Counted from the first letter of the stretch, positions 19,433 through 62,231 are shown. The stretch: 64,000 nucleotides of DNA from an uncultured Gammaproteobacteria bacterium (GCA_964510885.1 CAZEDL010000007.1:13999-77998), one strand, 5' to 3'. Notes: generated by a model not told the origin, from the sequence alone. Translations and numbers: made by a program.

Positions 19433-19457
19433 TGTCATTCCCGCGCAGGCGGGAATC
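19433..19457. repeat. Family-1 palindromic repeat unit (TGTCATTCCCGCGCAGGCGGGAATC)
   Basis: ATTCCC-N8-GGGAAT hairpin with GTCA/TGAC flanks. It recurs at 25429-25582, 36348-36417, 37201-37224, 42792-42874 and 62210-62219. Confidence 0.8.
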
Positions 19458-19467
19458 CAGTCGCTTA

Positions 19468-20673
19468 CTAAATAATTTTCACAAAAAACCGATTCCCCTT
19501 CTGCACCACATCTCCAGGTTTCACTACCGCTTCAATCGTTTCGACTTTATCATCATTGATCTTAACACCACCTTGAGTAATCACCTGCCGCGCTTCAGAT
19601 TTACTTTTTACCATCTTGCTTTCCACCAACACCGTAACAATATCCATTTTCGACGGCGACAGATTAGGGATAGAATCCGGCACTTCTTTTTGCTGAATCA
19701 CCTCGACAAATCGGGCTTCTCCAGCCTTAGCAGCCGCCTCACCCAAAAATTGCTTGGTAATTTCATAGGCCAAACGCAGTTTAGCATCCCGGGGATTTTT
19801 CGCGCTCGCAATCTCCTCAACCGCGTCCATCGGCACGCGGGTGCAGAGTTCAAACCCAGGCCGGATCATCCCGTCGCTCCAGCGCATCACTTTGCCAAAC
19901 ATATCTTCCGGAGTATCCGACAAGGCAATCATATTCCCTTCGCTCTTACCCATTTTCTTACCACTGTCGTCAGCCAATAATTTTCCAGTCAGAACAAATT
20001 TTTCCTTATGTTTCATTTCTTTCATCAACGCGCGGCCGGCGAGCATGTTAAATGTCTGGTCGTTGCCGCCAATCTCACCGTCCACATCCATCGCCACACT
20101 GTCATAACCCTGCATCAATGGATATAAAAATTCATGCAAAAAAATAGGCTTTTCTTCTGTCACTCTTTTTTCAAACATATCCCGCTCCAGCATCTGCTGC
20201 ACCGTAAAATGACTGGATAATTCCACCACATCTGCAAACGTCATCTTAGCGAGCCATTCACTGTTGAATTTAATCTCTGCGGGATTGCTACCGCCAAAAT
20301 CAAGCACCGCTTCGGCTTGCTGTTTATACGCCGCACAATTCTTAAGCACTTCGTCACGCGTTAATTTTTTGCGCGCCGCACCTTTGTCAGTCGGATCACC
20401 AATCATGCCGGTAAAATCACCGATGAGCACAATCACCTTATGCCCCAAATCCTGAAACTCGCGCAACTTTAAGAGTGTGATGCCATGCCCAATATGGAGC
20501 GTATCAGCCGTAGGATCATAGCCAGTGTATAACACGAGCTGTTTACCTTCGTTCAATCGCGCCATTAAAAATTCCTTTTTAGGATAAATATTTTCTACGC
20601 CACGCGTTAAGAGAGTTTCAATTTTTTGTGAATCGTGTGATACGGACATATTGATATTAAGATAAACGAGCAA
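19468..20673 (-). CDS. tyrS: Tyrosyl-tRNA synthetase (with C-terminal S4 domain)
   Basis: TGYDPTADTLHIGHG (HIGH) and KKMGKSEGN (KMSKS). Start ambiguity: TTG at 20673 with a GAGG-like SD, or ATG at 20649. Confidence 0.9.
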   Translation of the reverse strand: MLVYLNINMSVSHDSQKIETLLTRGVENIYPKKEFLMARLNEGKQLVLYTGYDPTADTLHIGHGITLLKLREFQDLGHKVIVLIGDFTGMIGDPTDKGAARKKLTRDEVLKNCAAYKQQAEAVLDFGGSNPAEIKFNSEWLAKMTFADVVELSSHFTVQQMLERDMFEKRVTEEKPIFLHEFLYPLMQGYDSVAMDVDGEIGGNDQTFNMLAGRALMKEMKHKEKFVLTGKLLADDSGKKMGKSEGNMIALSDTPEDMFGKVMRWSDGMIRPGFELCTRVPMDAVEEIASAKNPRDAKLRLAYEITKQFLGEAAAKAGEARFVEVIQQKEVPDSIPNLSPSKMDIVTVLVESKMVKSKSEARQVITQGGVKINDDKVETIEAVVKPGDVVQKGNRFFVKII

Positions 20674-23413
20674 GGTCAGCCTCGAGTGTCGCTAATTTTT
20701 GCTCCGCCTCCGCTAATTTTTTCTTTTCGCTGTCCACCAACTTCGCCGGCGCATGCGAAGTAAAATCCTCATTCGCCAGTTTAGCCTGTTGGGCAGCAAC
20801 ATACGGTTTTACTTTGGCAATCTCCTTACTAAGGCGCTCTTTTTCTTTGGCCTTATCAACCCCCTCGCTCACATTAGCAAATACCATCACATCACCTACC
20901 GCAAACCCCACCGCTCCGTCTGGTTTTATGATGTCAGATTCAATGGTAAGTGTAGCGATGCCGGTGCGTAAATTCTGTATCAGCGATTTTTCTTGAGACA
21001 AGAGAGCAATTTTTCCTTTGGCGCTGATAGATACACTTATTTTTCGCGCCGGTTCCACTTTATATTCAGCGCGCAAAGCGCGTACTGACACCACAATATC
21101 ACGAATCAAATTAAAATCATCCAAAACCGCGGCATCTTGTTTCAGCTGCTCCAGAGCCGGCCATTTTTGAACTATTAACAACTGATCAGTGCCATACACT
21201 TCACTCCAAATCGCTTCGGTCACAAACGGCATGAACGGATGCCACAACTTCAAAATACTGTTGAGGGCATAATTCAGAATATCTGATTTATCACCTTCGA
21301 TTTTGGCGATCTCTAAATACCAATCCGCGAGCTGATCCCAAGTAAACGTACGCAAGAGCTCTCCCGCTGCCGAAAACTGATACTGATCAAGCGAAGTGCT
21401 CACGAGTTTCACCGTATCACTGAGCTGGCTCAAAAACCAACGGTCACTCAAGGTTTTAGCCGTCGGCTCGGCTATATCCGCCTTAGGATTATCAATCGTC
21501 AGCAGCATAAACCGGCAGATATTCCACAGCTTATTGGTAAAATTCCGGAACCCGGCAATCTTCTCTTCCGACAACTTAAGATCATTCCCCGGCCCGTTAC
21601 CAATGAGCAGCGACAACCGCGTGGCATCCGCCCCAAACTTCGCAATCATGTCGAGCGGATCGATAATGTTATCAAGCGTCTTACTCATCTTCCGCCCCTG
21701 TTCATCACGCACTAGCCCGTGCAAATACACCGTCTTAAAAGGCACATCCCCAATCGCATACGTAGTCATGAGTATCATACGCGCCACCCAGAAGAAAATA
21801 ATATCATAACCAGTCTCAAGCACACTGGTCGGATGAAACCGCGCAAAATCGGGTGAATTTTTCAACCACTCTTCGAGAGAAGAATAATTTTCAAAGCTAT
21901 CTTTAGATAATAAAGTAGAAAAAGTCCACAAGCCAGACGAAAACCAGGTATCAAGTGTATCGGGATCTTGCTCCAGAGCATTCCCACACTGCGGGCAAAC
22001 AACAATTTCATCAACAGACACAAGCGGCTGCGCACATTTCGGATTTCCCTGTTTACAGTAGTAAACAGGAATCTGATGCCCAAACCAAATCTGGCGACTG
22101 ATGCACCAATCGCGTAAATTATCTATCCAATGAAAATACGTTTTCTCAAATCGATCCGGAATAATCTTAATCTGCTCATTACGCACCACCGTCTGCATCA
22201 ACTCTTTCAGACTTACCATCTGCCCGTCTGTAACCCCCTTAATTCTTAGGTCTTTATTCTTAAATTCAAACGGTTTATTCACATCCACAAACCACTGCAC
22301 CTTCGGCAGCGGCTCCACCACATCTTTGAACCGATCAGACGTCCCCACATTCTGAGCAATATCTTCTTCTTTGATTAATAGATCCTGATCTTTCAGATAC
22401 GCCACAAATTTCTGCTGCGCTTCTTTAATCGTGAGCCTGGCATAGGCTGCTCCGCCACTGCGCATCATCTTGCCGTCTTCACCAATCACCTGAATCAGGC
22501 CGATCGGATCCGCCGCCAATCTACAGCGCTCATACATGTCAAAGTCAACCATGCTGTGTGCTGGCGTCACCCCAAGCGCACCGGTGCCAAAACTATCATC
22601 CACCCCGGCGTCCCCAATCACTTTTATAGTCAGCGTGTGGCCGGCCTGTCCCACATTGTTCACCGTAAACACCTGACCAATATACTGCTTCCACTTTCCT
22701 TCCGGATGCACAGCTACCGCGGTATCGCCGAGCTTGGTTTCGGGGCGGGTGGTAGCAATCGGAATCGGAAACTCATGGCTATATTTAAACGTATACAATT
22801 TCGCGGGCCGCTCCACATGCACCAATTCATCATCACTACAGGTTGATTGCCCTTTCACCGACCAATTCACCACCCGATAGCCTCGGTAAATGAGCCCGTC
22901 ATCATACATTTTTTTAAACACGAGTCGCACCGCCCGGCTGCGCACGGCATCAAGCGTATATGCTTCGCGGCTCCAATCAAGCGATGCGCCCATGCGTTTG
23001 CATTGATTCACGATCGTATCATGACTGTCTTTGGCAAATTGATTGACGCGTTCTAAAAATGCATCACGCCCTAATTCTTCCTTGGGCTTCGTGAAACCCT
23101 CATTTTTTATCAGTAGTGCTTCCACTTTTGATTCGGTAGCTATGGCCGCATGATCCGTCCCCGGCACCCAAAGCGCAGCTTCACCCTTCATCCGATGATA
23201 ACGAGCCAGCACATCTTCGATCGCCAGCATGGCTGCATGACCCATATGAAGCGTACCCGTTACATTTGGGGGCGGCAGCACCATGGAAAAATAAGAGGTT
23301 ACATTATCTTGCGCCGAATTATTTTGCGGTCCGAAAAAACCGCTCTGCTCGGAACGTTCATATACCTTGTTTTCATATTGTTTTGGGTCGTAGGCCTTTG
23401 GGAGCTCTTTCAT
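20657..23413 (-). CDS. valS: Valyl-tRNA synthetase
   Basis: PPPNVTGTLHMGHA (HIGH), GRKMSKTLDN (KMSKS), C-terminal coiled coil. 918 aa. Confidence 0.95.
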   Translation of the reverse strand: MKELPKAYDPKQYENKVYERSEQSGFFGPQNNSAQDNVTSYFSMVLPPPNVTGTLHMGHAAMLAIEDVLARYHRMKGEAALWVPGTDHAAIATESKVEALLIKNEGFTKPKEELGRDAFLERVNQFAKDSHDTIVNQCKRMGASLDWSREAYTLDAVRSRAVRLVFKKMYDDGLIYRGYRVVNWSVKGQSTCSDDELVHVERPAKLYTFKYSHEFPIPIATTRPETKLGDTAVAVHPEGKWKQYIGQVFTVNNVGQAGHTLTIKVIGDAGVDDSFGTGALGVTPAHSMVDFDMYERCRLAADPIGLIQVIGEDGKMMRSGGAAYARLTIKEAQQKFVAYLKDQDLLIKEEDIAQNVGTSDRFKDVVEPLPKVQWFVDVNKPFEFKNKDLRIKGVTDGQMVSLKELMQTVVRNEQIKIIPDRFEKTYFHWIDNLRDWCISRQIWFGHQIPVYYCKQGNPKCAQPLVSVDEIVVCPQCGNALEQDPDTLDTWFSSGLWTFSTLLSKDSFENYSSLEEWLKNSPDFARFHPTSVLETGYDIIFFWVARMILMTTYAIGDVPFKTVYLHGLVRDEQGRKMSKTLDNIIDPLDMIAKFGADATRLSLLIGNGPGNDLKLSEEKIAGFRNFTNKLWNICRFMLLTIDNPKADIAEPTAKTLSDRWFLSQLSDTVKLVSTSLDQYQFSAAGELLRTFTWDQLADWYLEIAKIEGDKSDILNYALNSILKLWHPFMPFVTEAIWSEVYGTDQLLIVQKWPALEQLKQDAAVLDDFNLIRDIVVSVRALRAEYKVEPARKISVSISAKGKIALLSQEKSLIQNLRTGIATLTIESDIIKPDGAVGFAVGDVMVFANVSEGVDKAKEKERLSKEIAKVKPYVAAQQAKLANEDFTSHAPAKLVDSEKKKLAEAEQKLATLEADLARLS

Positions 23414-23414
23414 A

Positions 23415-23699
23415 TCAATTCTTTGGGGTAGACTTAGGCCGGACAGTCGCAGACTCCAGCTCAGCTAAATCTGATTCAAGATTGGGAAATATCAATGCCA
23501 ACGCAATACCAGGGTGATCTTTTTTAAACTCTTTTATTGATTTTTTTAACAGTTGTAAGTAACCAGCAAGCATATGCGGTTCACTGCCAATAGCCAGCCT
23601 CGCAGCTTCAAAACTCGCATTGATTTGAGCTATATCTTGCTGAACTTCAGAGGAAAAATCAATTACTTCGATCGATGAGCCACCGGTTGCTTCTAACAT
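23415..23699 (-). CDS. Hypothetical small protein (94 aa)
   Basis: Non-overlapping ORF ending 2 nt before the valS start. No family match, no SD. Confidence 0.3.
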   Translation of the reverse strand: MLEATGGSSIEVIDFSSEVQQDIAQINASFEAARLAIGSEPHMLAGYLQLLKKSIKEFKKDHPGIALALIFPNLESDLAELESATVRPKSTPKN

Positions 23700-23766
23700 A
23701 GGTTAAATACGATAAAATATTTCAATATAGTACTAAACCAAGCCAAAAAGAGCAAGCCAAAAATGA

Positions 23767-23795
23767 TTGACACAAATTAAAAAATATGCTATAGT
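23767..23795 (+). promoter_or_regulatory. Consensus sigma70-type promoter upstream of the high-GC gene
   Basis: TTGACA-17nt-TATAGT. Confidence 0.7.
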
Positions 23796-23807
23796 GCTTA
23801 GTTGCTA

Positions 23808-23836
23808 TTATGTCTAAATTAGAATTTAGACATAAA
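23808..23836. promoter_or_regulatory. Perfect 13-3-13 palindrome (candidate operator) just downstream of the -10 element
   Basis: TTATGTCTAAATT-AGA-AATTTAGACATAA. Confidence 0.55.
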
Positions 23837-24027
23837 ATAGTAATTAAATAATAGTTATATTTAAGGCAAATTAAGGTTTGTACCTTAACAATTCAGTTGG
23901 CTAAATACCAATAACTTAAAAATGTACGCGCAGACTAAAGAATTAAAATTCTAATTTTTTGATCTGCGCGTATCAACGCGTAAACAATTAACAAGGCCTG
24001 TCCAGGCTGTAGAAAAGGAGGCATATC

Positions 24028-25242
24028 GTGCCAAAACCGTACGACGAGAAACTGCAAAAGTTCAGAACCACACAGGAGGCGGATATCCGCCAAGGAAGGC
24101 TCATACGGCTCATTCCTCAGAAGGAGGAGCGCATCAAAACAACGCTCCAAGACCTCAGGAACCAGAGTGATCGCCGGGTCGCTATCCTGGCAGGTAAGCT
24201 CCTGGCAGAGCGAACCGCCCTCTCAACCCAAGACGCCCAGTTTGAGGCTGTGAAACTCGTGGGGGAGGAGATCTGGGCCGAAGGCGAAGAGGCCAAGGCC
24301 GAGGCGGAGAGGTGGCTCCAGGGCCAGCTCACCACCCCTCTTAACGTCCACGAAACAGCAGAGCTGACACGTCGAAGCAGAGAAGAGGAAGAGCGTCTGG
24401 AGGCCATTTACCAGGCCGAGATCTCGGCCGAACAGGCCCGCCTCGCCGAGGAGCCACCAAGCCGGACCACGGTGCCGGAGCGCACAATGGATCCGACCAT
24501 GTTCCACGGCAGGGCTCTCCCGGTCCTCGAGACGGACGATATGGAGGAGGCGGGCCCGGCTCCAACCGCGCTGGACACCCTTCCCCCGCAGGAAAGAGAG
24601 CTGGCCTCGGTCATTGTGGACCAGGCTGGGATCGAATCCCGGGTCCACCCCCTCAGCCCGCACCGTCCTCCAACGACGGCGCACCGGATGATCGGGGAAG
24701 CGCCCCACCCCGCCAACCAGACTCCCATCGAGCCACTGGCGGCCACACCCAGGCGTGCGGCCACCCAGAACGAGGTCGATACCCTGGTGCGACGAGGCCC
24801 CGCTCCCAAGGAGCGATGGCACCTGAACGATAAGCAAAAATCCGTGCTATGGGTTTTGATCTTGGTGGGAGTGCTGGTGGGTGGAGGAGGATGCCTTGCG
24901 TGGCTTGTCAACAAGCTATCCACCTCGGAGCGTCCCGCCGCCGCCCGGGTGCTGAACCAAACCGCTCCCGAAATCACGCCCGCCATGCAGCGGGCGATCG
25001 ACAAGGCGGTGGCCACTGAGGTCGCCGCCAAGACAGCGGAGTGGGAGAAGAGATTCACCCTGCGCAGCGAGGTCCGCGCGCTCATCATGAGCGAGGTGAG
25101 CACCCAGCTCCCCCCGGAGCAGCCAGCGCCCCCGCGCCCCCGGCCGCTGCGCCCCCGGCCGCTGCCCGACTTCGACAAGGGCCGCCAGCCTGACAGGCCC
25201 GGCCTCCGGTACCCGTTTACCACCACGAGGCCACGCCGCTAA
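24028..25242 (+). CDS. Hypothetical Pro-rich single-pass membrane protein encoded in a high-GC island (404 aa)
   Basis: GTG start with a perfect AAGGAGG SD 6 nt upstream. Charged N-terminal region, TM helix VLWVLILVGVLVGGGGCLAWLV, PRPRPLRPRPLP tail. ~65% GC with AGA/AGG Arg codons, unlike neighbouring genes. Confidence 0.6.
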   Translation: MPKPYDEKLQKFRTTQEADIRQGRLIRLIPQKEERIKTTLQDLRNQSDRRVAILAGKLLAERTALSTQDAQFEAVKLVGEEIWAEGEEAKAEAERWLQGQLTTPLNVHETAELTRRSREEEERLEAIYQAEISAEQARLAEEPPSRTTVPERTMDPTMFHGRALPVLETDDMEEAGPAPTALDTLPPQERELASVIVDQAGIESRVHPLSPHRPPTTAHRMIGEAPHPANQTPIEPLAATPRRAATQNEVDTLVRRGPAPKERWHLNDKQKSVLWVLILVGVLVGGGGCLAWLVNKLSTSERPAAARVLNQTAPEITPAMQRAIDKAVATEVAAKTAEWEKRFTLRSEVRALIMSEVSTQLPPEQPAPPRPRPLRPRPLPDFDKGRQPDRPGLRYPFTTTRPRR

Positions 25243-25313
25243 CCACGACCAACCCACCCCCCCACACCGCTCCGATCTAATCGGAGCCCAGCCTATCGGG
25301 GTGGAACGACTAA

Positions 25314-25399
25314 TCCAGGCCAGCCAGCGTCCACCCCTCCTGACCGATCGAGTCTCTCGATAGTTCAGGAGGACGCTCGCTGCCTGGATTTTTTGTTTT
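25314..25399 (+). terminator. GC-rich intrinsic terminator after the high-GC gene
   Basis: TCCAGGCCAGCCAGCG...CGCTCGCTGCCTGGA followed by TTTTTTGTTTT. Confidence 0.6.
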
Positions 25400-25428
25400 C
25401 TAAACATGATAATAAAAGGGGTTACTCC

Positions 25429-25582
25429 ATTCGCACGAGCTCATTCGGAATGACAAATAAAGAGTAAAGTGACCAGATTCGCGCCTGCGCGGGAATGACA
25501 ATTGGCCGGACAGAGATTCCTCACATTCGTTCGGAATGACAAGTGTTTGGACAGAGATCCTTCGCTCCGCTCAGGATGACAA
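25429..25582 (+). repeat. Tandem array of four family-1 hairpin units (ATTC-N14-19-GGAATGACAA), separated by 14-20-nt spacers ending in GACAGAG/GACCAG
   Basis: Units at 25429-25456, 25477-25501, 25516-25552 and 25557-25582. Unit 2 (ATTCGCGCCTGCGCGGGAATGACAATTGG) is near-identical to dispersed copies. The unit-4 loop TTCGCTCCGCTCAG recurs at 36348. Confidence 0.8.
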
Positions 25583-25910
25583 TTGAAAATAACAAAAAAC
25601 ACAAAAAAAATACTTCAATCACTACAACGCTCACCACCCCGCACCATTGCGCAGCTGAGGCCATCTGGCCCCGGTGAACAGAAGCGGCCGGCAGAGCAGG
25701 CGCTGCTGTTTGAGGCCCAACGGGCCGAGTTCAGGGCCCGAGCTTCGACGCGCCGTTGGCAGCGGCCGAGTGAAGCACCGGTTCGGTGGTTTTTTGGGCC
25801 TGTCCTCCGGATGAGGATACTTTTTTGCCATCAAAAAAGTAACATACCACTCACCAAAAGGTGGTTTACGGTCGGAGACAAAAAGTCACACACCGTCACA
25901 AAACACCAAA

Positions 25911-25939
25911 GTTGACACGATAATAATCACCTGTTATAA
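25911..25939 (+). promoter_or_regulatory. Consensus sigma70 promoter for the DHH-family gene
   Basis: TTGACA-17nt-TATAAT. Confidence 0.75.
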
Positions 25940-25996
25940 TCACGCGTTCTTGCTAAAATAAGCCTAAGAACCCTGCCTTCATAGGCATGAAATCCT

Positions 25997-27157
25997 ATGG
26001 CCCTGACTCCCTCCGAACAATTCAACCATCTGATCGGGCAGAGCCAGCAGATCCTGATTGTTTTCAGCCCCGGAACTGCCCTCGATGCGATCGCGAGCAG
26101 CCTCGCTCTCAAGCGCTGGCTGGAGAAAAAAAACAAGCGGGCCGATGTGGCCGCCGCTGGTTTTGTGTTGCCTAAAAATGCCCGCTTCCTGCCCGGCAGC
26201 AGCGACATCAAACCCCTACTTCAAGAATTACAAAAATTCATTATCAAAATTGATGTCTCGAATGCCCCGCTTGAAACCTTAAGCTACGATGTGAGCGGCA
26301 ATACCCTATCGATTTATCTCACTCCAAAGAGCGGCCTGCTCAGCAAAAACGAACTGCGCACGGCGCAATCAACCTTTAAATACGATTTAATAATTACCCT
26401 TAACACACCCGACCTGGCCGCACTCGGCACCGTTTTTTCTGCCAACCCCGATTTATTTTACCGCACCCCGCTCGTAAATATCGATTACCACGCCACCAAT
26501 GAACATTACGGCCAGGTAAATCTGGTAGACATCACCGCCACTTCGGTAGCCGAAACTCTGACGCATGTACTGAAACAAATCGATGAAGCGGCTTGCGATA
26601 CCGGCGTAGCCACCGCCCTCTTGACCGGCATGGTGGCCGCCACGCACAGTTTCAAAAATGCCAACGTCACGCCGCAAGCCCTGCAACTCGCCAGCAATCT
26701 GATCAAGCAAGGCGCGGAACGTGAAACCGTAATCCACCACCTCTATCATGCCCATTCGCTCACCACACTCAAGCTCTGGGGCCATGCCCTGACGCATTTA
26801 CAAAATGATGGCGAAACCGGCCTCGTCTGGGCCAGCCTGACCCGCGATGATTTCGTCCGCTCCGGAGCCAGTGAACAGGACCTATATGGCATCATTGAAG
26901 AACTAATCAACAATTCTCCCGAAGCCAAAGTAACGGCTTTATTTTACGAATCCACTCTCCCCAACTCTAACACTATTCATTGTCTCGTTAGCAGCGGCAA
27001 ACATGCTAATGCCAGCGAACTCCTTAAATCATTCAACCCAACCGGAGATAAAAAACAAGCCAGCATTGTGCTGACGGAAAAAACTTTGAAAGAAGCGGAA
27101 ACTATAGTGCTCTCTGTCATTAAAAACAACCTAAATAATAAATTGGGTTCCACTTAA
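25997..27157 (+). CDS. DHH/DHHA1-family phosphoesterase-like protein (NrnA-like) with degenerate catalytic motifs
   Basis: NIDYHATNEH resembles DHH motif III (usually IDHH). C-terminal SSGKHANA resembles the DHHA1 GGGH motif. Motif I is degenerate (FSPGTALDAIAS). Confidence 0.5.
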   Translation: MALTPSEQFNHLIGQSQQILIVFSPGTALDAIASSLALKRWLEKKNKRADVAAAGFVLPKNARFLPGSSDIKPLLQELQKFIIKIDVSNAPLETLSYDVSGNTLSIYLTPKSGLLSKNELRTAQSTFKYDLIITLNTPDLAALGTVFSANPDLFYRTPLVNIDYHATNEHYGQVNLVDITATSVAETLTHVLKQIDEAACDTGVATALLTGMVAATHSFKNANVTPQALQLASNLIKQGAERETVIHHLYHAHSLTTLKLWGHALTHLQNDGETGLVWASLTRDDFVRSGASEQDLYGIIEELINNSPEAKVTALFYESTLPNSNTIHCLVSSGKHANASELLKSFNPTGDKKQASIVLTEKTLKEAETIVLSVIKNNLNNKLGST

Positions 27158-27182
27158 TCAATTCACTCTAAAAAAAATAAAA

Positions 27183-27257
27183 GAATCTGGAATTTCGAAT
27201 TTGAATCTAGCACGAAACAGCCAGACACATACATTCTAAATTCCAGATTCCAAATTC
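27183..27257. repeat. Long palindromic element (family 3) downstream of iPGM copy 1
   Basis: The right arm ATTCTAAATTCCAGATTCCAAATTC is identical to the copy at 28913-28937. The left arm GAATCTGGAATTTCGAAT is complementary. An A/T run follows. Confidence 0.75.
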
Positions 27258-27267
27258 TTCACGCCAA

Positions 27268-28851
27268 CTACACCAAACTCCTCCCCGTCATCTCCGGCGG
27301 CTGAGGCAGACCCATAAGCGATAATACCGTCGGCGCCACATCGGCCAAAATTCCAACTGGTGATAACAAGCTAAGATCGCCTTCCAGGGCATCTCCCGAC
27401 GGCCCAGCCGTGCCCTGAAAATCTTTGCCGATAATCAAGAGCGGCACCGGGCTCGTGGAATGTTCTTTATCGATCTCGCCCGTCTGCAAATTAAGCACAC
27501 ATTCGGCATTGCCATGATCGGCTGTCATCACCACCACGCCGCCTTTGGCGAGCGTATGATCTACCACCTCTTTAAACGCCTGATCACACGCTTCAATCGC
27601 TTTGATACTTGCTTCGAGGTTCCCAGTGTGCCCCACCATATCCGGGTTGGCAAAATTCATTGCCACGAAATCAAACTGCCCACTATCGATCGCTTTGGCC
27701 GCTTCTTTAGCCACTGCACGCACCGACATTTCAGGCGCGTCGGCATAACTAGCCACCTTGGGCGAGGGCACGAGCACACGCTCTTCGCCAGGGAATGCCG
27801 TTTCTACCGTCCCGTTCAAGAAGAACGTCATGTGCGCATACTTTTCCGTCTCGGCAATATGAACTTGCTTTAAGCCGGCCTTACTCACTGTCTCGGCCAG
27901 CGAATTAGTCACAATAATCGGCGGATAGGCCACAATCACCGGCAATTCTTTTTCATATTCCGTCATGGTAACAAACCATAATTTATCATAATATGTGCGC
28001 TCAAATTTGTGGAATCCCGGCAACACAAACGCCTGCGTCAATTGCCTAGCCCGATCCGGACGAAAATTGAAGAATATAACGGCATCACCATTTTCAATCC
28101 TAGCCACCGGTTTCCCGCCGTCGGTAAGTACCGTCGGCACGAATTCTTCATCATAATTTTTTTGTTCATAGCTTGCTTCCACCGCCGCCACCGGATCAGT
28201 CGCCGTGCGTTCGGCCACCCCCTCAGTCATTGCCCGATAGGCTTTTTCTACCCTGTCCCAACGATTGTCGCGATCCATAGCATAATACCGGCCAGATAGA
28301 GTCGCGATCTTGCCTACCTTGAGACTTTTCAGTTTCGCCTGCAACTCTTTCACTATACCAAGGCCCGAATTAAATACCATGTCACGCCCATCAAGAATAG
28401 CGTGCACGAATACTTCTTTGGACAGTCCTTGAGCTTTACATAATTCCAAGAGAGCAGACAGGTGTTCATCGCTGGCATGTACATTACCCGACCCAACCAG
28501 CCCCACCAGATGCAATTTACTCTTATTCGCGCGCACTTTTTCAACTGCTTTCAAAAATGCCGGATTGGTAAAAAACTCTTGACTGCTAATCTCTTGGTTA
28601 ATGCGCGGACACGATTGATAATATACGCGGCCCGCCCCGATATTCAGATGCCCCACTTCAGAATTTCCCATTTCTTGCGGCATGATGCCAACTTCCATCC
28701 CCGAGGCATAGAGCGTCATCACCGGATAATTTTTCACGTACGATAAAAAATTCGGAATAGTAGCACGAGTGATAGCATTCCCCTCGCTGTCCGGGGCTAC
28801 ACCCCAGCCGTCAAAGACGGTCAGCACTACTGGTTTATAATTATAAGGCAT
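27268..28851 (-). CDS. gpmI: 2,3-bisphosphoglycerate-independent phosphoglycerate mutase (copy 1)
   Basis: MPYNYKPVVLTVFDGWGVA..., catalytic-Ser region GNSEVGHLNIGAGR, C-terminal phosphotransferase domain. 527 aa. Confidence 0.9.
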   Translation of the reverse strand: MPYNYKPVVLTVFDGWGVAPDSEGNAITRATIPNFLSYVKNYPVMTLYASGMEVGIMPQEMGNSEVGHLNIGAGRVYYQSCPRINQEISSQEFFTNPAFLKAVEKVRANKSKLHLVGLVGSGNVHASDEHLSALLELCKAQGLSKEVFVHAILDGRDMVFNSGLGIVKELQAKLKSLKVGKIATLSGRYYAMDRDNRWDRVEKAYRAMTEGVAERTATDPVAAVEASYEQKNYDEEFVPTVLTDGGKPVARIENGDAVIFFNFRPDRARQLTQAFVLPGFHKFERTYYDKLWFVTMTEYEKELPVIVAYPPIIVTNSLAETVSKAGLKQVHIAETEKYAHMTFFLNGTVETAFPGEERVLVPSPKVASYADAPEMSVRAVAKEAAKAIDSGQFDFVAMNFANPDMVGHTGNLEASIKAIEACDQAFKEVVDHTLAKGGVVVMTADHGNAECVLNLQTGEIDKEHSTSPVPLLIIGKDFQGTAGPSGDALEGDLSLLSPVGILADVAPTVLSLMGLPQPPEMTGRSLV

Positions 28852-28855
28852 AAAA

Positions 28856-28937
28856 AATCTGGAATCTGGAATTTAGAATCTAGAATATAGAGAACAGTAC
28901 TGAAAAAATACTATTCTAAATTCCAGATTCCAAATTC
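28856..28937. repeat. Long palindromic element (family 3) downstream of iPGM copy 2
   Basis: A >=19-bp stem GGAATCTGGAATTTAGAAT / ATTCTAAATTCCAGATTCC around a ~33-nt loop. The T-run on the minus strand fits a terminator for gene 2. Confidence 0.75.
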
Positions 28938-28946
28938 TAAATTCAA

Positions 28947-30521
28947 TCACCAGAGCACCCTCCCCGTCATCTCTCCCGGAATGGCTATCTCCATACTTTT
29001 TAAAACACTCGGCGCCACATCAGCCAAACTGCCAGCGCGCAAGTGTTGTCCGCCCTTTAAGCCAAGCGCCGTGAGCCGCTCCGGCGGAGCCACCACCACA
29101 AATGGCACGGGATTACGCGAATGCTCAGTATCTATTTCTCCGGTTTTAATATTTTTCATCTCTTCGGCATTGCCATGATCCGCAGTGATAAAAACGGTAG
29201 CACCTGTAGCAAGGGCAGCACTAACAACTCGTTCTAAGGCTACATCGAGCACCCTAATCGATTCTTCTGTCGCTCCTAATTGGCCAGTATGACCAAGCAT
29301 ATCCGCATTGGCAAAATTTGCCGCTAACAAATCATACTGCTTGCTCTCGAGCGCTTTAATCAAGGCTTCGGCAATAGCAGCTGCCTGCATGGCTGGCTTA
29401 TCGGTGAAACGCTCCACACTATCAGAGGGTATTTTTAACCAGGTTATATTGCCTGAATGATCGGCATAACCACCATTAAAAAAATAAGTTATATGGGCAA
29501 ATTTTTCCGATTCAGCCACATATAGTTGTCGCCGCTCACCAAGCTGATTCACGAAGCCGCCCACCACATCGCGACTCGGAAAAGCCGTCAAGACCCCCGG
29601 CAAATCAGGGCCAAAATCCGTCATCGCCACAAATCTAATATGTGCCGGCATCCGGACACGGTCGAAGCTGGCCGCATTAGCCTTTGTGAAATCTGGCTGA
29701 ACAAAAGCTTTAGTTAGCTGGCGCGCCCGGTCGCTGCGCAAATTAAAAAAGAATACTACATCATTATCCTCCACCGGGCCAACTGGCTTGCCTTGGTCAG
29801 TTACCATCACTGTTGGCGCAACAAACTCATCGCTCTCGCCGCGATTATACGCCTCGGCGATAGCCGCTTCAGCCGTAGTAGTCGTATGCCGAGCCGAACC
29901 ATTAACAATTGCATTATAGGCCTGCTCCGTGCGCTGCCAATTTTTATTTCGATCCATGCTATAGAGCCGCCCACAAATACTAGCGATTTGTTCGCTCCCA
30001 TGACAGCGATCGCGTAATTTTTTTAGATACTGCAGAGCATCATGCTCACCTGAATCGCGTCCATCGGTAAATAAATGTAAATATACTTTTGTTATCCCTT
30101 CTCGTGACAACAGATCAAGCAGTGCATACACATGCTCGGGCGAACTGTGGGCACTATTGTGGTTGCTAAGCAAGCCCATCACATGGGCCGCCGTATTATA
30201 TTTTTTAAGATGATGCACCGCTTCATGAAATGCTGTATTTTTAAAAAATGTACCGTCTTCAATCGCCTCCGAGACATATAACGCATCCTGCTTCACCACC
30301 CGGCCCGCCCCCAAATTTAAATGTCCGGCTTCGCTATTACCCTCTTGCCCCTCGAACAAACCAACCGCCGCACCACTGGCCGCAAGCTCGGTATGCGGAT
30401 ACGTCTTTAACCACTCAAAAAAATGCGGTGCCGTGCGGGCCGAAATAGCTGATACATCGTGGTCAGTGGCTGGGCAGCCCCAGCCGTCTAATATCAAGAG
30501 CAACGTGGGAGAAGGTGTCAT
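28947..30521 (-). CDS. gpmI: 2,3-bisphosphoglycerate-independent phosphoglycerate mutase (copy 2, diverged paralog)
   Basis: MTPSPTLLLILDGWGCPA... GNSEAGHLNLGAGR. 524 aa, the same domain order as copy 1 but a clearly diverged sequence. Confidence 0.9.
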   Translation of the reverse strand: MTPSPTLLLILDGWGCPATDHDVSAISARTAPHFFEWLKTYPHTELAASGAAVGLFEGQEGNSEAGHLNLGAGRVVKQDALYVSEAIEDGTFFKNTAFHEAVHHLKKYNTAAHVMGLLSNHNSAHSSPEHVYALLDLLSREGITKVYLHLFTDGRDSGEHDALQYLKKLRDRCHGSEQIASICGRLYSMDRNKNWQRTEQAYNAIVNGSARHTTTTAEAAIAEAYNRGESDEFVAPTVMVTDQGKPVGPVEDNDVVFFFNLRSDRARQLTKAFVQPDFTKANAASFDRVRMPAHIRFVAMTDFGPDLPGVLTAFPSRDVVGGFVNQLGERRQLYVAESEKFAHITYFFNGGYADHSGNITWLKIPSDSVERFTDKPAMQAAAIAEALIKALESKQYDLLAANFANADMLGHTGQLGATEESIRVLDVALERVVSAALATGATVFITADHGNAEEMKNIKTGEIDTEHSRNPVPFVVVAPPERLTALGLKGGQHLRAGSLADVAPSVLKSMEIAIPGEMTGRVLW

Positions 30522-30859
30522 ACCCGTAATAATTTTTTATTGCGACGATGCCGATATTTATCGCGTGTCGATTTTTTGGCCATATTTTTGGCAAAGGCTG
30601 TCGACAGGTCAACACCGGTTTGATTCGCCAAGCAGAGTAGTACAAATAGCACATCCGCCATTTCATCGGCAAGATCGTGCTTGTGGTCAGTTTTTTTAAA
30701 GCTCTGCTCACCATATCGGCGCACCACTATCCGGGCCAATTCACCGACTTCCTCCATCAATTGGCCAAGATTAGTCAGTTCCGAAAAATAACGGACGCCA
30801 ACTGTTTTGATCCACTCATCTACCTGTGCTTGCATGTCCGCCATGGTTGGCTTCGTCAT
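30518..30859 (-). CDS. MazG-like nucleotide pyrophosphohydrolase (single-domain)
   Basis: QLMEEVGELARIV...DLADEMADVLFVLLCLANQTGVDL. The EExxE/DxxD metal-binding helix pattern of MazG/NTP-PPase. Confidence 0.7.
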   Translation of the reverse strand: MTKPTMADMQAQVDEWIKTVGVRYFSELTNLGQLMEEVGELARIVVRRYGEQSFKKTDHKHDLADEMADVLFVLLCLANQTGVDLSTAFAKNMAKKSTRDKYRHRRNKKLLRV

Positions 30860-30874
30860 ATCAGGGGCTACAAA

Positions 30875-32300
<1,426 letters not shown>

Positions 32301-32344
32301 TGAGTTCAGAACTGCCTTACTATAACATACTTATACTGAGTCTA

Positions 32345-32372
32345 AAAGAGTCCCGATGTAATCGGGACTCTT
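32345..32372 (-). terminator. Intrinsic terminator downstream of the SIMPL-domain gene
   Basis: GAGTCCCGAT-tacat-ATCGGGACTC followed by TTTTAG on the minus strand. Confidence 0.6.
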
Positions 32373-32401
32373 ATCTATAATATGGCTAATGTAAGATATT
32401 T

Positions 32402-33340
32402 TTACCACCGACTCCAGCGGCTGGTTGGCGACATAATTTCATATGTTACACTCACATTCATCACCACATCTTTGCTGCCAGCGGGAGCACCAGACGAAGC
32501 GGATGCTTCAGGGGAAAGAGGAGTGTCAACTGCCTTCGAAACTGCCGCTCCATAAAAAATTGGATAGTCAGAACCCTCATATTCAGAGTACGTCACCACA
32601 CTCTTCAAACGCACCCCGAGCGTTTCAGCGAGCTTTACCGCCTTCATTTGAGCATCTTGAAGCGCCTTATCGCGAGCGACGGTTTTAAGATTATCAGTAT
32701 CGTCAATGGTAAATTGCAACTCCCCCACCTGATTAGCACCATACTTTCCAGCAAGCGACAATACGGCCGGAATCATATTCAAATCACGAATTTTTACCTG
32801 CAGACTGCTGTCGACATGATAGCCGCGAAGTTCCGGCGCTTTGTCGGGTACTGCGGTATATTCCGGACGAATGCTGTAACCCGTCTTAAGATCCTTGTCA
32901 TCAATGCCAAGTGCGCGCACTTCTTTCAAAATCGGATCCATCACCGATTTATTATTCTTCTGGGCAGTCGCGACATCTTTATCGGTGTTACCATACCCGA
33001 GGCTTGTCACTGCAATATCATTGTTACCAGTGACTTTGCCAGTGCCGTTCACCGTAATCGTGCGTTCAGATTTATCAGCCAGGCCAATCGTCTCGTAATT
33101 CTTTATATTACTGTGGATGAGCGTACCGATATAAAAAATGATATACACCAGGAGTACGCCGCCAAGCGTCATGAGAATTTTTTTACCAAAAGCTCCGTTG
33201 CAGCACCAGAGCGAATGGCATTTTTTCATAAATGGACTATCCATATCATCCGTGCCGGGACGCATGTCTCGGCGCGGGGTTGCAGTTGATTTTGTTGTCG
33301 TCGTTGGCATACGATTCACCTTTCTGAATCGCTCCCGCAC
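32402..33340 (-). CDS. SIMPL/DUF541-domain protein (periplasmic or membrane-anchored)
   Basis: N-terminal TM (ILMTLGGVLLVYIIFYIGTLI), then ITVNGTGKVTGNNDIAVTSLGYG...GYSIRPEY...QVGELQFTID, typical of DUF541. Confidence 0.65.
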   Translation of the reverse strand: MRERFRKVNRMPTTTTKSTATPRRDMRPGTDDMDSPFMKKCHSLWCCNGAFGKKILMTLGGVLLVYIIFYIGTLIHSNIKNYETIGLADKSERTITVNGTGKVTGNNDIAVTSLGYGNTDKDVATAQKNNKSVMDPILKEVRALGIDDKDLKTGYSIRPEYTAVPDKAPELRGYHVDSSLQVKIRDLNMIPAVLSLAGKYGANQVGELQFTIDDTDNLKTVARDKALQDAQMKAVKLAETLGVRLKSVVTYSEYEGSDYPIFYGAAVSKAVDTPLSPEASASSGAPAGSKDVVMNVSVTYEIMSPTSRWSRW

Positions 33341-33391
33341 GGGTGGCGACTCTATTTAAAATAAATTGATAAAATTAGTATAACACAAAAT

Positions 33392-34585: not shown

Positions 34586-34646
34586 AATAAAAAATATGGC
34601 AGTAGTATACCATATTTTTAAAACTCATTCATCTCAGAAATTTGCC

Positions 34647-35684: not shown

Positions 35685-35688
35685 ACCG

Positions 35689-36261: not shown

Positions 36262-36347
36262 ACGTTATAAATTTATAGAAATTAGCCAGTAAGTTTAACT
36301 GACTACTTCAAACCATTGTCTAAACTTTTCTAAAAATCTTCATTCTT

Positions 36348-36417
36348 TGTCATTCTGAGCGGAGCGAAGAATCTTTACTCGTTTAGTGAAGATCCTTCAC
36401 TGCGTTCAGGATGACAA
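36348..36417. repeat. Two family-1 hairpin units in inverted orientation (BIME-like pair) between scpB and scpA
   Basis: TGTCATTCTGAGCGGAGCGAAGAATC ... GATCCTTCACTGCGTTCAGGATGACAA. Confidence 0.8.
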
Positions 36418-36452
36418 CGGACAAAACTATCTATCAGTTTGAAGACTCATCA

Positions 36453-37148: not shown

Positions 37149-37200
37149 ACCATTATAAAGTCATTCATCGGCGGAGGGAGGAGAGAAGCCTCTCTCAAAT

Positions 37201-37224
37201 TGTCATTCCCGCCTGCGCGGAAAT
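37201..37224. repeat. Family-1 hairpin unit between scpA and aspS
   Basis: TGTCATTCCCGCCTGCGCGGAAAT. Confidence 0.75.
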
Positions 37225-37241
37225 GATAGACAAAACCAAAA

Positions 37242-42680: not shown

Positions 42681-42791
42681 ATAGTTGTAATTAGAAGTTG
42701 AGTAAATTAGGTAAAAATATAATCAGATACCCTGATTATAAAATACCTGAGTAAAAATCTCAATTGTCGTAGTATCAGGCGGGTCAATAGA

Positions 42792-42874
42792 CTGTCATCC
42801 CCGCGTAGGCGGGGATGACAGTCACAGACAACTGGAGAAACCATTCTAGATTCCCGCTTTCGCGGGAATGACAA
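42792..42874. repeat. Two family-1 hairpin units between tsf and rpsB
   Basis: CTGTCATCCCCGCGTAGGCGGGGATGACAG ... GATTCCCGCTTTCGCGGGAATGACAATTGG. The second ends identically to array unit 2. Confidence 0.8.
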
Positions 42875-42895
42875 TTGGATTAATTGGGGAAGCAA

Positions 42896-48063: not shown

Positions 48064-48083
48064 ATTTAGTAAAAAGCCTAGAA

Positions 48084-48152
48084 GACTCGGAAGGCCAGGA
48101 AGCTTTGGAATATGACCCCTAGCCTCCCCGGCTTCCGAAGCCTCCCAAGCCT
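48084..48152. repeat. Family-2 repeat (GGAAGC/CCAAGC-rich hairpin plus tail) between secE and nusG
   Basis: GACTCGGAAGGCCAGGAAGCTTTGG...CCCCGGCTTCCGAAGCCTCCCAAGCC. Confidence 0.7.
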
Positions 48153-48161: not shown

Positions 48162-48707
48162 ATGGCCAAACAAACACTCAACCTCGGTCGGCGCTGGTAC
48201 GTGCTCCACACCTATAGTGGGTACGAAGAAAACGTGAAGAGCAACCTCTTGCAACGCGTGGAATCGTTCGACATGCAAGACAAAATCTTCAACGTTTTAG
48301 TGCCAAAAGAAAAGAAAATCAAAATCAAAAGTGGTAAGCGCGTCAGCATCGAAGAAAAAATCTTTCCGGGCTATGTTCTCGTCGAAATGGTGGTTACCGA
48401 TGATTCCTGGTATGTAGTTCGTAACACCCCGAATGTAACTGGCTTTATCGGCTCCGGCACTACTCCGACACCAATCGACCAAAAAGAAATCGACAGCCTG
48501 TTGAAACGCGTAAACACTACCGAAGCCCAACACAAGATTGATGTTGAAACCGGCGACGTGGTCCGCATTGTGGACGGCCCGTTCAAAAACTTCGAAGGCA
48601 AAGTCAGCGCAGTGGATCAGGAACGTGGCCGCATCAAAGTCATGGTATCCATGTTTGGCCGCGAAACCCCGGTGGAGCTCGATGCTCTTCAAGTTAAAAA
48701 AGCTTAA
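48162..48707 (+). CDS. nusG: Transcription termination/antitermination factor NusG
   Basis: RRWYVLHTYSGYEENVKSNL (NGN) ... GDVVRIVDGPFKNFEGKVSAVD (KOW). Confidence 0.9.
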   Translation: MAKQTLNLGRRWYVLHTYSGYEENVKSNLLQRVESFDMQDKIFNVLVPKEKKIKIKSGKRVSIEEKIFPGYVLVEMVVTDDSWYVVRNTPNVTGFIGSGTTPTPIDQKEIDSLLKRVNTTEAQHKIDVETGDVVRIVDGPFKNFEGKVSAVDQERGRIKVMVSMFGRETPVELDALQVKKA

Positions 48708-48718
48708 ATAAACGGCGG

Positions 48719-48788
48719 GGAAGGCTCGGAAGGCCGGGGATGCTTGGAAAAACAACCCAAGCATCCCCGGCTTCCCAAGCCTCCAAGC
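48719..48788. repeat. Family-2 repeat between nusG and rplK
   Basis: GGAAGGCTCGGAAGGCCGGGGATGCTTGG-aaaaacaa-CCCAAGCATCCCCGGCTTCCCAAGCCTCCAAGC. Clear hairpin. Confidence 0.75.
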
Positions 48789-51058: not shown

Positions 51059-51092
51059 GGCTAGGGAGGCTTAGGAAGCTAGGCAAGCTTGG
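51059..51092. repeat. Family-2 repeat (inverted orientation), left flank of the four-helix-bundle gene
   Basis: GGCTAGGGAGGCTTAGGAAGCTAGGCAAGCTTGG. Its reverse complement resembles CTTCCGAAGCCTCCCAAGCC. Confidence 0.65.
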
Positions 51093-51444
51093 AATAATTT
51101 AAATTCTTAATCAGACCATTTAACAAATAAGCAACTTCATTAACCCTCTTAAGCATAAAAATAAACTGTTCCAAATTAATATATTCTAACGACTGAGCCA
51201 ATTCAAGATAACACTGACATTCATTGAGAGAGCCTTTTGAAATATAAAGAAACTTAAGAAAATCCTTATCAGTTGGTTTACCTCTGCCTTCAGCAATATT
51301 AGCTAACACGGAAACAGCTGCACGTCGAAATTGACTCGTTAGGCCGAACATTTCCTCTCTCGGAAAATGATTCGTCAATCGATAACTTAATTTAACAAAC
51401 TCAAAACCTTTTTTCCAAACTAGCAAATTATGGTAATCCTGCAT
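51079..51444 (-). CDS. Four-helix-bundle protein (TIGR02436-like, also known as the 23S-IVS-encoded protein family)
   Basis: NLLVWKKGFEFVKLSYRLTNHFPREEMFGLTSQFRRAAVSVLANIAEGRGK...SKGSLNECQCYLELA. Characteristic family pattern. Confidence 0.75.
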   Translation of the reverse strand: MQDYHNLLVWKKGFEFVKLSYRLTNHFPREEMFGLTSQFRRAAVSVLANIAEGRGKPTDKDFLKFLYISKGSLNECQCYLELAQSLEYINLEQFIFMLKRVNEVAYLLNGLIKNLNYSKLA

Positions 51445-51453: not shown

Positions 51454-51486
51454 GCAAGCCTCCCGAGCATCCCAAGCCTTCCCAGC
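51454..51486. repeat. Family-2 repeat, right flank of the four-helix-bundle gene
   Basis: GCAAGCCTCCCGAGCATCCCAAGCCTTCCCAGC. Confidence 0.65.
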
Positions 51487-53740: not shown

Positions 53741-53816
53741 GGGCCTGTAGCTCAGGGGTTAGAGCGCCACCCTTATAAGGTGGATGTCGATGGTTCAATT
53801 CCATCCAGGCCCACCA
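53741..53816 (+). tRNA. tRNA-Ile with a UAU anticodon, CCA encoded
   Basis: GGGCCTGTAGCTCAGGGGTTAGAGCGCCACCCTTATAAGGTGGATGTCGATGGTTCAATTCCATCCAGGCCCACCA. The body is near-identical to bacterial tRNA-Ile(GAU). Anticodon stem CCACC/GGTGG, loop CTTATAA, positions 34-36 TAT. Confidence 0.8.
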
Positions 53817-56224: not shown

Positions 56225-56235
56225 TCTATACTTAT

Positions 56236-56267: not shown

Positions 56268-56291
56268 ATTAGGTACTTTTTTTAGACACTA

Positions 56292-56663: not shown

Positions 56664-56701
56664 AGATTTGTTATTAAAAATAAAGATATTTACATTGTAA
56701 A

Positions 56702-59485: not shown

Positions 59486-59487
59486 AT

Positions 59488-60924: not shown

Positions 60925-60935
60925 AAAATGTAGAG

Positions 60936-61694: not shown

Positions 61695-61753
61695 ATTTAA
61701 GCGGTTAAAGAATGACCATAGTATACCATTCTACCCCATTTGGGCAAGGGTTA

Positions 61754-61782
61754 TTGACAGCCTCGGCCCGCTCTGCTATACT
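61754..61782 (+). promoter_or_regulatory. Consensus sigma70 promoter for rpmE
   Basis: TTGACA-17nt-TATACT. Confidence 0.7.
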
Positions 61783-61843
61783 CGTCGTACCTAAATAAAG
61801 CCTCTATATTTTACTACTGGTGCCACCGGCATCATCGCTTATT

Positions 61844-62152
61844 ATGAAACCGAAGATCCATCCTGAATTTTATACTGATACCGCTGTCACCTGTGCCTGC
61901 GGCAATGCCTTTACCACCGGCAGCACCCTCAAAGAAATCCGCGTGGAATTATGCAGCCAGTGCCACCCGTTCTACACCGGTAAACAGAAATTTGTAGATA
62001 CCGCCCGCCGCGTCGAGAAATTCCAAGAAAAAGCCGAAAAAATTTCCGCAGCCGCTGCTATGCGCAAAGGTAAGAAGGTTAAGAAAGCCGCTTCAGTAGC
62101 CAAAAAGAAAGCTAAGGCTGAGACAAAAACAGACGTCGCTTCCGAAAAATAG
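61844..62152 (+). CDS. rpmE: 50S ribosomal protein L31 with a Lys-rich C-terminal extension
   Basis: [48 protein letters not shown]. The ORF track starts earlier; it is trimmed here to the canonical MKPKIHP. Confidence 0.9.
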
Positions 62153-62164
62153 GTACCATCATCT

Positions 62165-62196
62165 AAAAAACAGACTACTCTTTTGGTCTGTTTTTT
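62165..62196 (+). terminator. Intrinsic terminator after rpmE
   Basis: aaaaaaCAGACtactcttttgGTCTGtttttt. Confidence 0.7.
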
Positions 62197-62231
62197 GTTA
62201 CATTTTAGGTGTCATTCCGAGATAAGACAAA

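Follow-up and report, generated by a model that had tools for sequence, protein, structure and literature searches.

Oriented, tagged hairpin repeats between housekeeping genes of a Patescibacterium belong to the Neisseria dRS3/NTS family

Along a 64,000-nucleotide stretch of DNA from an assembly labelled uncultured Gammaproteobacteria bacterium (GCA_964510885.1, CAZEDL010000007.1:13999-77998; hereafter the window, taken at its full length), short palindromic repeats recur in the gaps between genes, and the question they raise is what these repeats are and how they came to stand there. An earlier reading, made from the sequence alone, had described them as a dispersed, strictly extragenic family of hairpins resembling repetitive extragenic palindromes (REPs) and BIMEs. 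This description was borne out: units are present at every locus it had named, and all six loci lie outside open reading frames (ORFs). We count 11 units at these six loci and conclude that they belong to an element family that has already been described, in a host lineage that is new for it. We put at roughly 70% the probability that the window repeats are oriented hairpins of the NTS/SRM family, known also as Neisseria dRS3 and as CGTC-tagged REPs, and that they are recognised by Ssn, a small GIY-YIG nuclease.

Is the family real, and what defines it? The 8-mer TGTCATYC occurs 12 times over both strands of the window, always at one of the noted loci and always between genes. The similarity survived a shuffled-sequence control as well: with up to two substitutions allowed, the consensus sequences of the two structural classes described below gave nine matches in the window and none in 200 dinucleotide-preserving shuffles. 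The six loci all fall within the 9.4% of the window that lies outside ORFs of at least 70 amino acids (p ~7e-7). The motif proposed earlier for the family, ATTCCC-N8-GGGAAT, stands as a palindrome found exactly in two copies, where 0.02 are expected, but not as a definition, since with up to two mismatches it is barely enriched (8 observed against 3.3 expected). Because the palindrome is exact in two copies and near chance at two mismatches, it is by its asymmetric flanks, a TGTC tag and a C-tail, that the family is defined. The repeat unit is oriented, not symmetric. Its common layout, as read from the six loci, is a TGTC tag (often TTGTC), a hairpin initiated by A/T whose stem starts A-T, T-A, Y-R, C-G, and a C-initiated tail, C(C/T)N. 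GTC stands 5' of the palindrome in 11 of 11 units; the 3' C is kept in the units at 19433, 25473 and 42846 and in all class-2 units, with G instead at 37201 and in the double-headed unit at 42793.

Two structural classes can be told apart. Class 1, TGTC-ATTCCCGC-GNRR-GCGGGAAT-CYA, is a 20-nt hairpin with a tetraloop, whereas class 2, TGTC-ATYCY-GA-RC-GNA-GY-GA-RGRAT-CT, is a hairpin of 21-22 nt with tandem G.A pairs and a GNA loop. The units are:

19433..19460, + strand: class-1 unit, TGTC / ATTCCCGC GCAG GCGGGAAT / CCAG, inside the 46-nt tyrS-argS spacer.
25428..25455, - strand: degenerate unit, the first of a four-unit array and grouped with class 2; the forward strand reads TTGTC ATTCCGAATGAGCTCGTGCGAAT GG.
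25473..25500, - strand: class-1 unit with one stem mismatch, TGTC ATTCCCGC GCAG GCGCGAAT CTGG.
25515..25541, - strand: class-2-like unit of 22 nt, TGTC ATTCC GA AC GAAT GT GA GGAAT C.
25556..25581, - strand: class-2 unit, TGTC ATCCT GA GC GGA GC GA AGGAT C, an exact match to the consensus.
36348..36373, + strand: class-2 unit, an exact class-2 match that forms, between scpB and scpA, the left arm of a dimer whose tags point outward.
36391..36416, - strand: class-2 unit, TGTC ATCCT GA AC GCA GT GA AGGAT C, an exact class-2 match and the right arm of the scpB/scpA dimer.
37201..37226, no single strand: degenerate class-1 unit between scpA and aspS, with the TGTC tag on the + strand, the loop orientation (GCAG) on the - strand and one stem mismatch.
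42793..42820, no single strand: double-headed class-1 variant, left of the rpsB-tsf pair, a perfect 28-nt palindrome, TGTCATCCCCGCGTAGGCGGGGATGACA.
42846..42873, - strand: class-1 unit, right of the rpsB-tsf pair, TGTC ATTCCCGC GAAA GCGGGAAT CTAG.
62210..62221, + strand: truncated class-2 5' half, TGTCATTCCGAG, intergenic and 10 nt upstream of prfA; a half-copy had been noted here from the start.

What, then, are these hairpins? The window motif ATTCCC-N8-GGGAAT agrees letter for letter with the consensus published for the dRS3 repeat of Neisseria (PMC1797815); the GCAG loop and the flanks, too, are as in copies from Neisseria lactamica (locus L076). Chenal et al. (Nat Commun 2025; PMC11893778) defined a 28-nt sequence, NTS (CGTCATTCCCGCGMAVGCGGGAATCYRG), together with a degenerate SRM motif. 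The NTS is found in the window with one mismatch at 19433-19460(+) and 42846-42873(-) and with two at 25473-25500(-), and the SRM regular expression has two matches, at 19433 and 42846, against 0.19 in 100 shuffles. A survey by Di Nocera et al. (BMC Genomics 2013; PMC3733652) describes "CGTC-tagged REPs", whose tag is often TGTC and among which Neisseria dRS3 is family CGTC-1, with stems of 8-9 bp starting A,T, loops of 4-5 nt and a CCA-like tail; inverted dimers predominate, clusters are uncommon, and the units stand outside genes, between neighbors that are unidirectional or convergent. The 19433 unit (TGTC / ATTCCCGC / GCAG / GCGGGAAT / CCA) shows all of the CGTC-1 features defined in that text, the 42846 unit does so likewise, its loop being GAAA and its tail CTA, and the units at 25473 and 37201 depart from them by one stem mismatch each. 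The repeats are therefore not a new kind of element, dRS3 having been known since the Neisseria genome papers, the CGTC-tagged REPs since 2013 and the link to Ssn since 2025. That class 2 corresponds to family CGTC-2 of the 2013 survey is a guess.

The family reaches well beyond Neisseria, and pattern scans placed it in hundreds of other genomes. When one genome per species was scanned for TCATTCCCGCNNNNGCGGGAATC, at least 120 stretches matched, and the labels of those listed span ~19 phylum-level groups; class-1 copies were seen in Pseudomonadota (all classes), Bacteroidota, Chloroflexota, Planctomycetota, Nitrospirota, Acidobacteriota, Verrucomicrobia, Gemmatimonadota, Elusimicrobia, Vampirovibrionales, Bdellovibrionales, Zixibacteria and others. 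Seven Patescibacteria metagenome-assembled genomes (MAGs) are among the matches listed, from Saccharibacteria (three), Paceibacteria, Parcubacteria, Uhrbacteria and Magasanikiibacteriota. At positions that the search pattern did not fix, 173 class-1 copies agree closely: YG precedes TCA in 93% of them, 86% have a GNRR loop (2% its complement) and 77% a CAN tail. We built a covariance model from 120 copies, drawn from ~19 phylum-level groups and none of them from the window, and its top nine matches in the window were the noted loci, with E values of 4.2e-12 (19433), 4.3e-12 (42846) and 1.6e-6 (25473), then 0.03-0.24; the latter include the 25515 unit (0.036, on the outer stem and flanks) and the 37201 unit (0.074, on the - strand). 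On a contig of one MAG labelled Nanoarchaeota, units of both classes surround a DNA-methylase-like ORF (L097, 1511-2754), and either this is a binning error or the family reaches DPANN archaea.

The class-1 units also behave as hairpins when folded. As single-stranded DNA (ssDNA), the 19433 unit forms an 8-bp hairpin at -9.1 kcal/mol (z = -2.7) and the double-headed 42793 unit a 15-bp hairpin at -20.2 kcal/mol (z = -9.8); the units at 42846 and 37201 fold at -9.0 kcal/mol (z = -3.8) and -6.4 kcal/mol (z = -2.6), and the degenerate 25428 unit, in which the tag and outer stem are retained, has no significant hairpin (z = -0.3). The double-headed form, a perfect palindrome (TGTCATCCCCGCGNARGCGGGGATGACA) with a tag on each strand, occurs both at 42793-42820 and in a Paceibacteria MAG (5507-5532 of locus L038). 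Among the class-2 units, the cores at 25556-25581 and 36348-36373 are the same except for one compensatory stem pair (93% complementary), the 36391 unit has a compensatory A-T inner pair in place of G-C, and the 21-nt core of the 36348 unit is found identical in loci of other phyla. Covariation is plain in 157 class-2 copies from viral contigs, where Watson-Crick pairing at the three Y/R positions is present in 156/157, 157/157 and 151/157 copies, compared with the 52-65% that independent positions would give; both G.A pairs were fixed by the search pattern and so do not vary. Details of the sequence-only reading needed adjusting here. It had paired loops shared between units: TTCGCTCCGCTCAG is indeed at 25561 on the + strand, but its partner is the reverse complement, at 36355 rather than 36352, and GGGAATGACAATTGG is indeed at 25491, with its second site at 42864 rather than 42863. 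As to the spurious ORFs attributed to the repeats, 19432..19980 does start VSFPRRRES, but 42707..42895 is not open, holding stops and reading ..VIPA*AGMT.. / ..SRFPLSRE...

Which enzyme goes with such repeats? SsnA is a 94-amino acid, single-domain GIY-YIG protein that binds and cuts the NTS as ssDNA only and on the forward strand only; GTC before the palindrome, for cleavage, and C after it, for binding, are its key positions (PMC11893778). The same authors found that ssn genes are often flanked by repeats, that the system lowers transformation of N. meningitidis by NTS-bearing DNA, and that an Ssn homolog is present in 137 of 169 genomes with >200 SRM, leaving ~19% without one. We fetched 3.1 Mb of loci by repeat pattern alone and searched them with jackhmmer for Ssn-type ORFs. 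Five were found (L045, L104, L126, L165 and L225), and the distribution of scores is bimodal, with five at E <= 4e-50 and the next at E = 0.8; the L045 protein matches Pfam GIY-YIG at 2.5e-13. All five genes, which lie in class-1 loci, have a + copy on one side and a - copy on the other, tags outward; these two copies are 302-345 nt apart in the four cases listed, and L104 has an extra inner copy.

Class 2 has a bracket architecture of its own. Metagenomes scanned for pairs of class-2 units with outward tags and a gap of 314-344 nt gave at least 120 brackets, and 91 of the 120 listed enclose an Ssn-like ORF (E down to 2e-39); viral scans for class-2 brackets with 290-350 nt of cargo found none. 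In this second Ssn clade the right-hand terminal repeat itself supplies the final 6-7 codons of the gene (..DSSLRSE or ..DPSLRSG; L365-L484), and the two clades align with a probability of 100% at 49% identity. From these bracket data it follows that each of the repeat classes in the window is the terminal repeat of its own Ssn element elsewhere. Copies less than 150 nt apart in the fetched loci (201 pairs) are predominantly in the +- tags-outward arrangement (126, against 44, 18 and 13 for the others), which is the arrangement expected for derivatives without cargo. Clustering the ORFs of 120 random repeat-bearing 8-kb loci recovered only recurrent housekeeping families, a comparison that is underpowered because random copies lie too far from a single ssn gene, and a tblastn search of all fetched loci with the window proteins turned up no ssn-carrying close relative of the host.

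How did the repeats come to stand in this genome? All window units lie between co-directional gene pairs, several of them operon junctions, in operon spacers of 37-215 nt. Their neighbors are tyrS and argS (the 19433 unit), the gene for a 404-amino acid hypothetical protein and a DHH-family gene (the array at 25428-25581), scpB and scpA (the dimer at 36348-36416), scpA and aspS (37201), tsf and rpsB (the pair at 42793-42873) and rpmE and prfA (the half-unit at 62210). They are arranged as two tags-outward dimers (36348/36391 and 42793/42846, with internal spacers of 17 and 25 nt), two singletons, one truncated half-unit and one direct array, and some units sit inside operons; the earlier claim of inverted pairs and of a copy between argS and tyrS proved correct. 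Orientation relative to transcription is mixed: the 19433 unit and the four array units are antisense, and those at 42846 and 36391 sense. The array combines class-1 and class-2 units in one orientation, 13-19 nt apart, and its third and fourth units share an extended tail, GGACAGAGAT on the + strand.

A gain can be read at the tyrS-argS junction. Three relatives with 63-66% ValS identity keep the synteny gap-pgk-SIMPL-eno-iPGM-iPGM-DHH / valS-tyrS-argS, and their 80 kb of syntenic sequence hold no class-1 or class-2 unit even at three substitutions, from which we conclude that the units were gained in this lineage. From the tyrS stop to the argS ATG there is 1 nt in two of these relatives (L487 and L488) and 46 nt in the window, where the 28-nt class-1 unit has 7 nt before it and 11 nt after it; ATGCTCGAT comes next (compare ATGCTCCGA in L488); the unit between these genes is, therefore, an insertion.

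A mechanism in which Ssn recognises the folded, tagged strand, and in which the repeats spread as repeat-ssn-repeat elements and their derivatives, is the one best supported by these observations. Each unit consists of a 5' YGTC tag, a stem of 8 bp, or of 5+2 bp with tandem G.A, starting A-T, T-A, a loop (GNRR or GNA) and a tail that starts with C; one strand, folded as ssDNA, would be bound by the small single-domain nuclease and cut a few nucleotides 5' of the tag, as the literature on SsnA indicates. The autonomous form would be an IS-like repeat-ssn-repeat element with its tags outward, and singletons, tags-outward dimers and arrays may be derivatives that lack the gene, comparable to miniature inverted-repeat transposable elements. 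In this genome, both classes have inserted into very short spacers between housekeeping genes. A resident Ssn encoded elsewhere in the genome may act on the window copies, and its effect would probably be on ssDNA (incoming transforming DNA, or replication or repair intermediates) rather than on transcripts; Ssn may also mobilise the repeats and have some role in transformation. A bolder proposal is that the window units are non-autonomous copies of an Ssn-driven transposon, with Ssn as a hypothetical class of transposase, and that two lineages of it invaded one Patescibacterium; we regard this as possible but doubtful. CPR (candidate phyla radiation) episymbionts are thought to depend on natural transformation, and a related possibility is that the system gates it.

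Several observations weigh against recognition of the window repeats by Ssn, or against their mobility. There is no Ssn or other GIY-YIG protein in the 64-kb window (best E = 14 with an Ssn profile; none by tblastn), and NCBIfam and Pfam scans of its ~60 ORFs revealed neither of these, nor a RAYT, an IS110 element or a transposase of any other kind. Two profile searches of a set of 5.8 billion proteins gave no CPR-labelled Ssn in the top 120, where the labels are Sphingomonadales, Chloroflexi, Acidobacteria and similar and so are uninformative on CPR either way. Class-2 units have no significant fold under nearest-neighbor DNA parameters (z ~0) and do not match the published SRM regular expression. 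The mixed-class array in a single orientation is atypical, as only 31 of the 201 short-range pairs elsewhere share orientation. The copies at 25428, 37201 and 62210 are degenerate, and with several units in that state some or all of the copies may be relics. To our knowledge, transposition by Ssn has never been demonstrated.

Could the copies, then, be orphans, the fossils of a past invasion in a genome that no longer has an Ssn and in which nothing is currently active? With no ssn in 64 kb, at least three units degenerate or truncated, and about a fifth of SRM-rich genomes having no Ssn homolog in the published survey, the idea has some force, and for the degenerate units it is plausible. As an account of the whole set we think it rather unlikely, since three class-1 and three class-2 units are within 0-1 changes of a consensus common to distant phyla, and since relatives free of copies point to gain in the lineage and not to an ancient residue.

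That the repeats act mainly at the level of RNA, as terminators or as stabilisers of mRNA 3' ends within operons, is very unlikely. The copies do lie between co-directional genes and are probably transcribed, the loops of the tagged strand are GNRA-like, and Di Nocera et al. (PMC3733652) regard many REPs as plausible RNA elements. However, the terminator role suggested for them at first found no support: no T-tract follows any copy (the post-stem sequences are CCAGTCGC, CTAGAATG and CTTTACTC, unlike those of intrinsic terminators), none is among the 20 terminator-like sites found by a scan of 19000-38000, and orientation relative to the mRNA is mixed. Moreover, several copies sit within operons where termination would be harmful (tyrS-argS, rpsB-tsf, scpA-scpB), and SsnA does not bind the RNA form of its target (PMC11893778). 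A secondary effect of the repeats on mRNA stability is possible.

We consider it highly improbable that the hairpins are primarily attachment or insertion sites for the recombinases of phages or insertion sequences (ISs), even though dRS3 is the integration site of the neisserial filamentous Nf/MDA phages, through a phage-encoded transposase (PMC1797815), and both repeat classes are common on IMG/VR contigs. The NCBIfam and Pfam scans placed no prophage, IS or recombinase next to any window copy, and use as a recombination target would not account for the origin or the conservation of the repeats.

Least probable of all, in our estimation, is a REPIN-RAYT system, in which REP doublets are copied by a domesticated IS200-like Y1 (HUH) transposase, a partner that the sequence-only reading had suggested. 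In one preprint, ATTCCCGCGCAGGCGGGAATC, with 241 copies in N. meningitidis, is assigned to a Group 2 RAYT as its REPIN population, and the repeats are reported to decay where that RAYT carries a frameshift, so that for Neisseria both partner hypotheses coexist in the literature; inverted dimers are also the commonest arrangement, as such a system would have it. Nevertheless, there is no RAYT in the window, the tag is YGTC and not GTAG, and the core of the repeat is conserved across >15 phyla, unlike RAYT-specific REPs. An E. coli rayT seed picked out two RAYTs in the 3.1 Mb of fetched sequence (L282 and L302), and the REPs on either side of them are unrelated ones of the GGCGCAGGCTTCCAGCCTG type, whereas Ssn is inside the class-1 and most of the listed class-2 brackets; Di Nocera et al. 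(PMC3733652) recorded no RAYT with CGTC units at its flanks. Our cross-phylum sample supports Ssn as the partner. What REP/BIME systems with RAYTs (the REPs of E. coli and the REPINs of Pseudomonas) have in common with the window repeats is short extragenic palindromes, inverted doublets, a presumed ssDNA-hairpin substrate and an IS-like origin; they differ in tag (GTAG), in enzyme (HUH-Y1 in place of GIY-YIG) and in being lineage-specific rather than sharing a core across phyla.

Two further ideas were set aside, a mimic of the tRNA acceptor minihelix (stem and CCA tail, as a substrate of RNase P or the CCA enzyme), because orientation relative to transcription is mixed and an ssDNA partner is documented, and a CRISPR or integron attC origin, the spacers being too short, the units heterogeneous and an R'/R'' core absent.

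Returning to hairpins recognised by Ssn, how closely does the window resemble the systems already described? With NTS/SRM-Ssn (PMC11893778) it shares the near-identical 28-nt sequence at two loci, the oriented tag, hairpin and C-tail, the extragenic placement and, in the other genomes that we examined, the repeat-ssn-repeat architecture. It differs in that the host is a Patescibacterium with no ssn in the window, in that half of the units belong to the 21-nt class outside the SRM regular expression, the class that brackets the second Ssn clade, and in that its units occupy operon spacers, whereas the large clusters published surround surface-protein genes. Compared with CGTC-1, as set out in PMC3733652, the TGTC variant of the tag, the 8-bp stem from A,T, the 4-nt loop, the 3-nt CCA-like tail, the inverted dimers and the location between unidirectional genes are all alike; that survey covers five phyla without CPR and states that no dedicated enzyme or transposase was known for these repeats. 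The array at 25428-25581 is unlike the NIME arrays of Neisseria, where dRS3 alternates with RS elements of ~50-150 bp, in its short spacers, two hairpin classes and single orientation, and we do not class it as one.

Our analysis adds both repeat classes in a Patescibacteria genome, at operon junctions and with an empty-site comparison that shows insertion; a covarying 21-nt class, missed by the published search motif, that flanks a distinct Ssn clade; and a sample from many phyla in which Ssn, not RAYT, is inside the brackets. If Ssn mobilises the repeats, insertion footprints would be conveniently read in small CPR genomes that have few copies, and if the transposon proposal is true, a ~1-Mb genome with a clean tyrS|argS empty and filled site would make target and footprint readable. 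For annotation, the units yield spurious peptides (SFPRRRES, VIPAKAGIQ, ..DSSLRSE) and break short-read assemblies. Only three short contigs in Logan matched the window, all identical to it, and Rfam at its gathering threshold has no match at the repeats.

The host is a Magasanikbacteria-like Patescibacterium of the CPR. The relatives of its ValS (60-67% identity) are labelled Candidatus Magasanikbacteria or Patescibacteria, and Tsf (213 amino acids) and AspRS (465 amino acids) are short. Window genes are mostly housekeeping genes on the minus strand; at a GC content of 46-51%, the window shows negative GC skew throughout.

The window has other features that merit mention. The spacer between the divergent valS and DHH genes (23414-25996) is 2.58 kb long, compared with 108 nt in the relative L488, and contains a 94-amino acid ORF, a 404-amino acid Pro/Glu-rich ORF with a single transmembrane segment (24028-25242; local GC 55%, no match in Pfam or NCBIfam) and the array of four repeat units; the block appears to be an insertion. 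At 53741-53816 (+) there is a tRNA-Ile whose anticodon is TAT. In most bacteria AUA is decoded by a CAT tRNA modified with lysidine, and the TAT anticodon hints at an unusual strategy for this codon.

A second repeat family, of GGAAGC/GCTTCC-like words, is found at 48065-48145, 48704-48784 and 51455-51479; it includes a hairpin with 26-nt arms at 48722-48782, and its copies adjoin nusG, rplK and a 23S_rRNA_IVP/bAvd-like gene (51079-51444). A third repeat (TTCTAAATTCCAGATTCCAAATTC) occurs at 27230-27265, 28847-28882 and 28913-28936, where its 36-nt inverted arms flank the first of two tandem iPGM paralogs and a hairpin also lies between both genes; the tandem iPGM pair is kept in relatives. Finally, an Rfam L10_leader at 3720-3876 (-), scoring 50.1 bits upstream of rplJ-rplL, is ordinary and supports the gene calls there.

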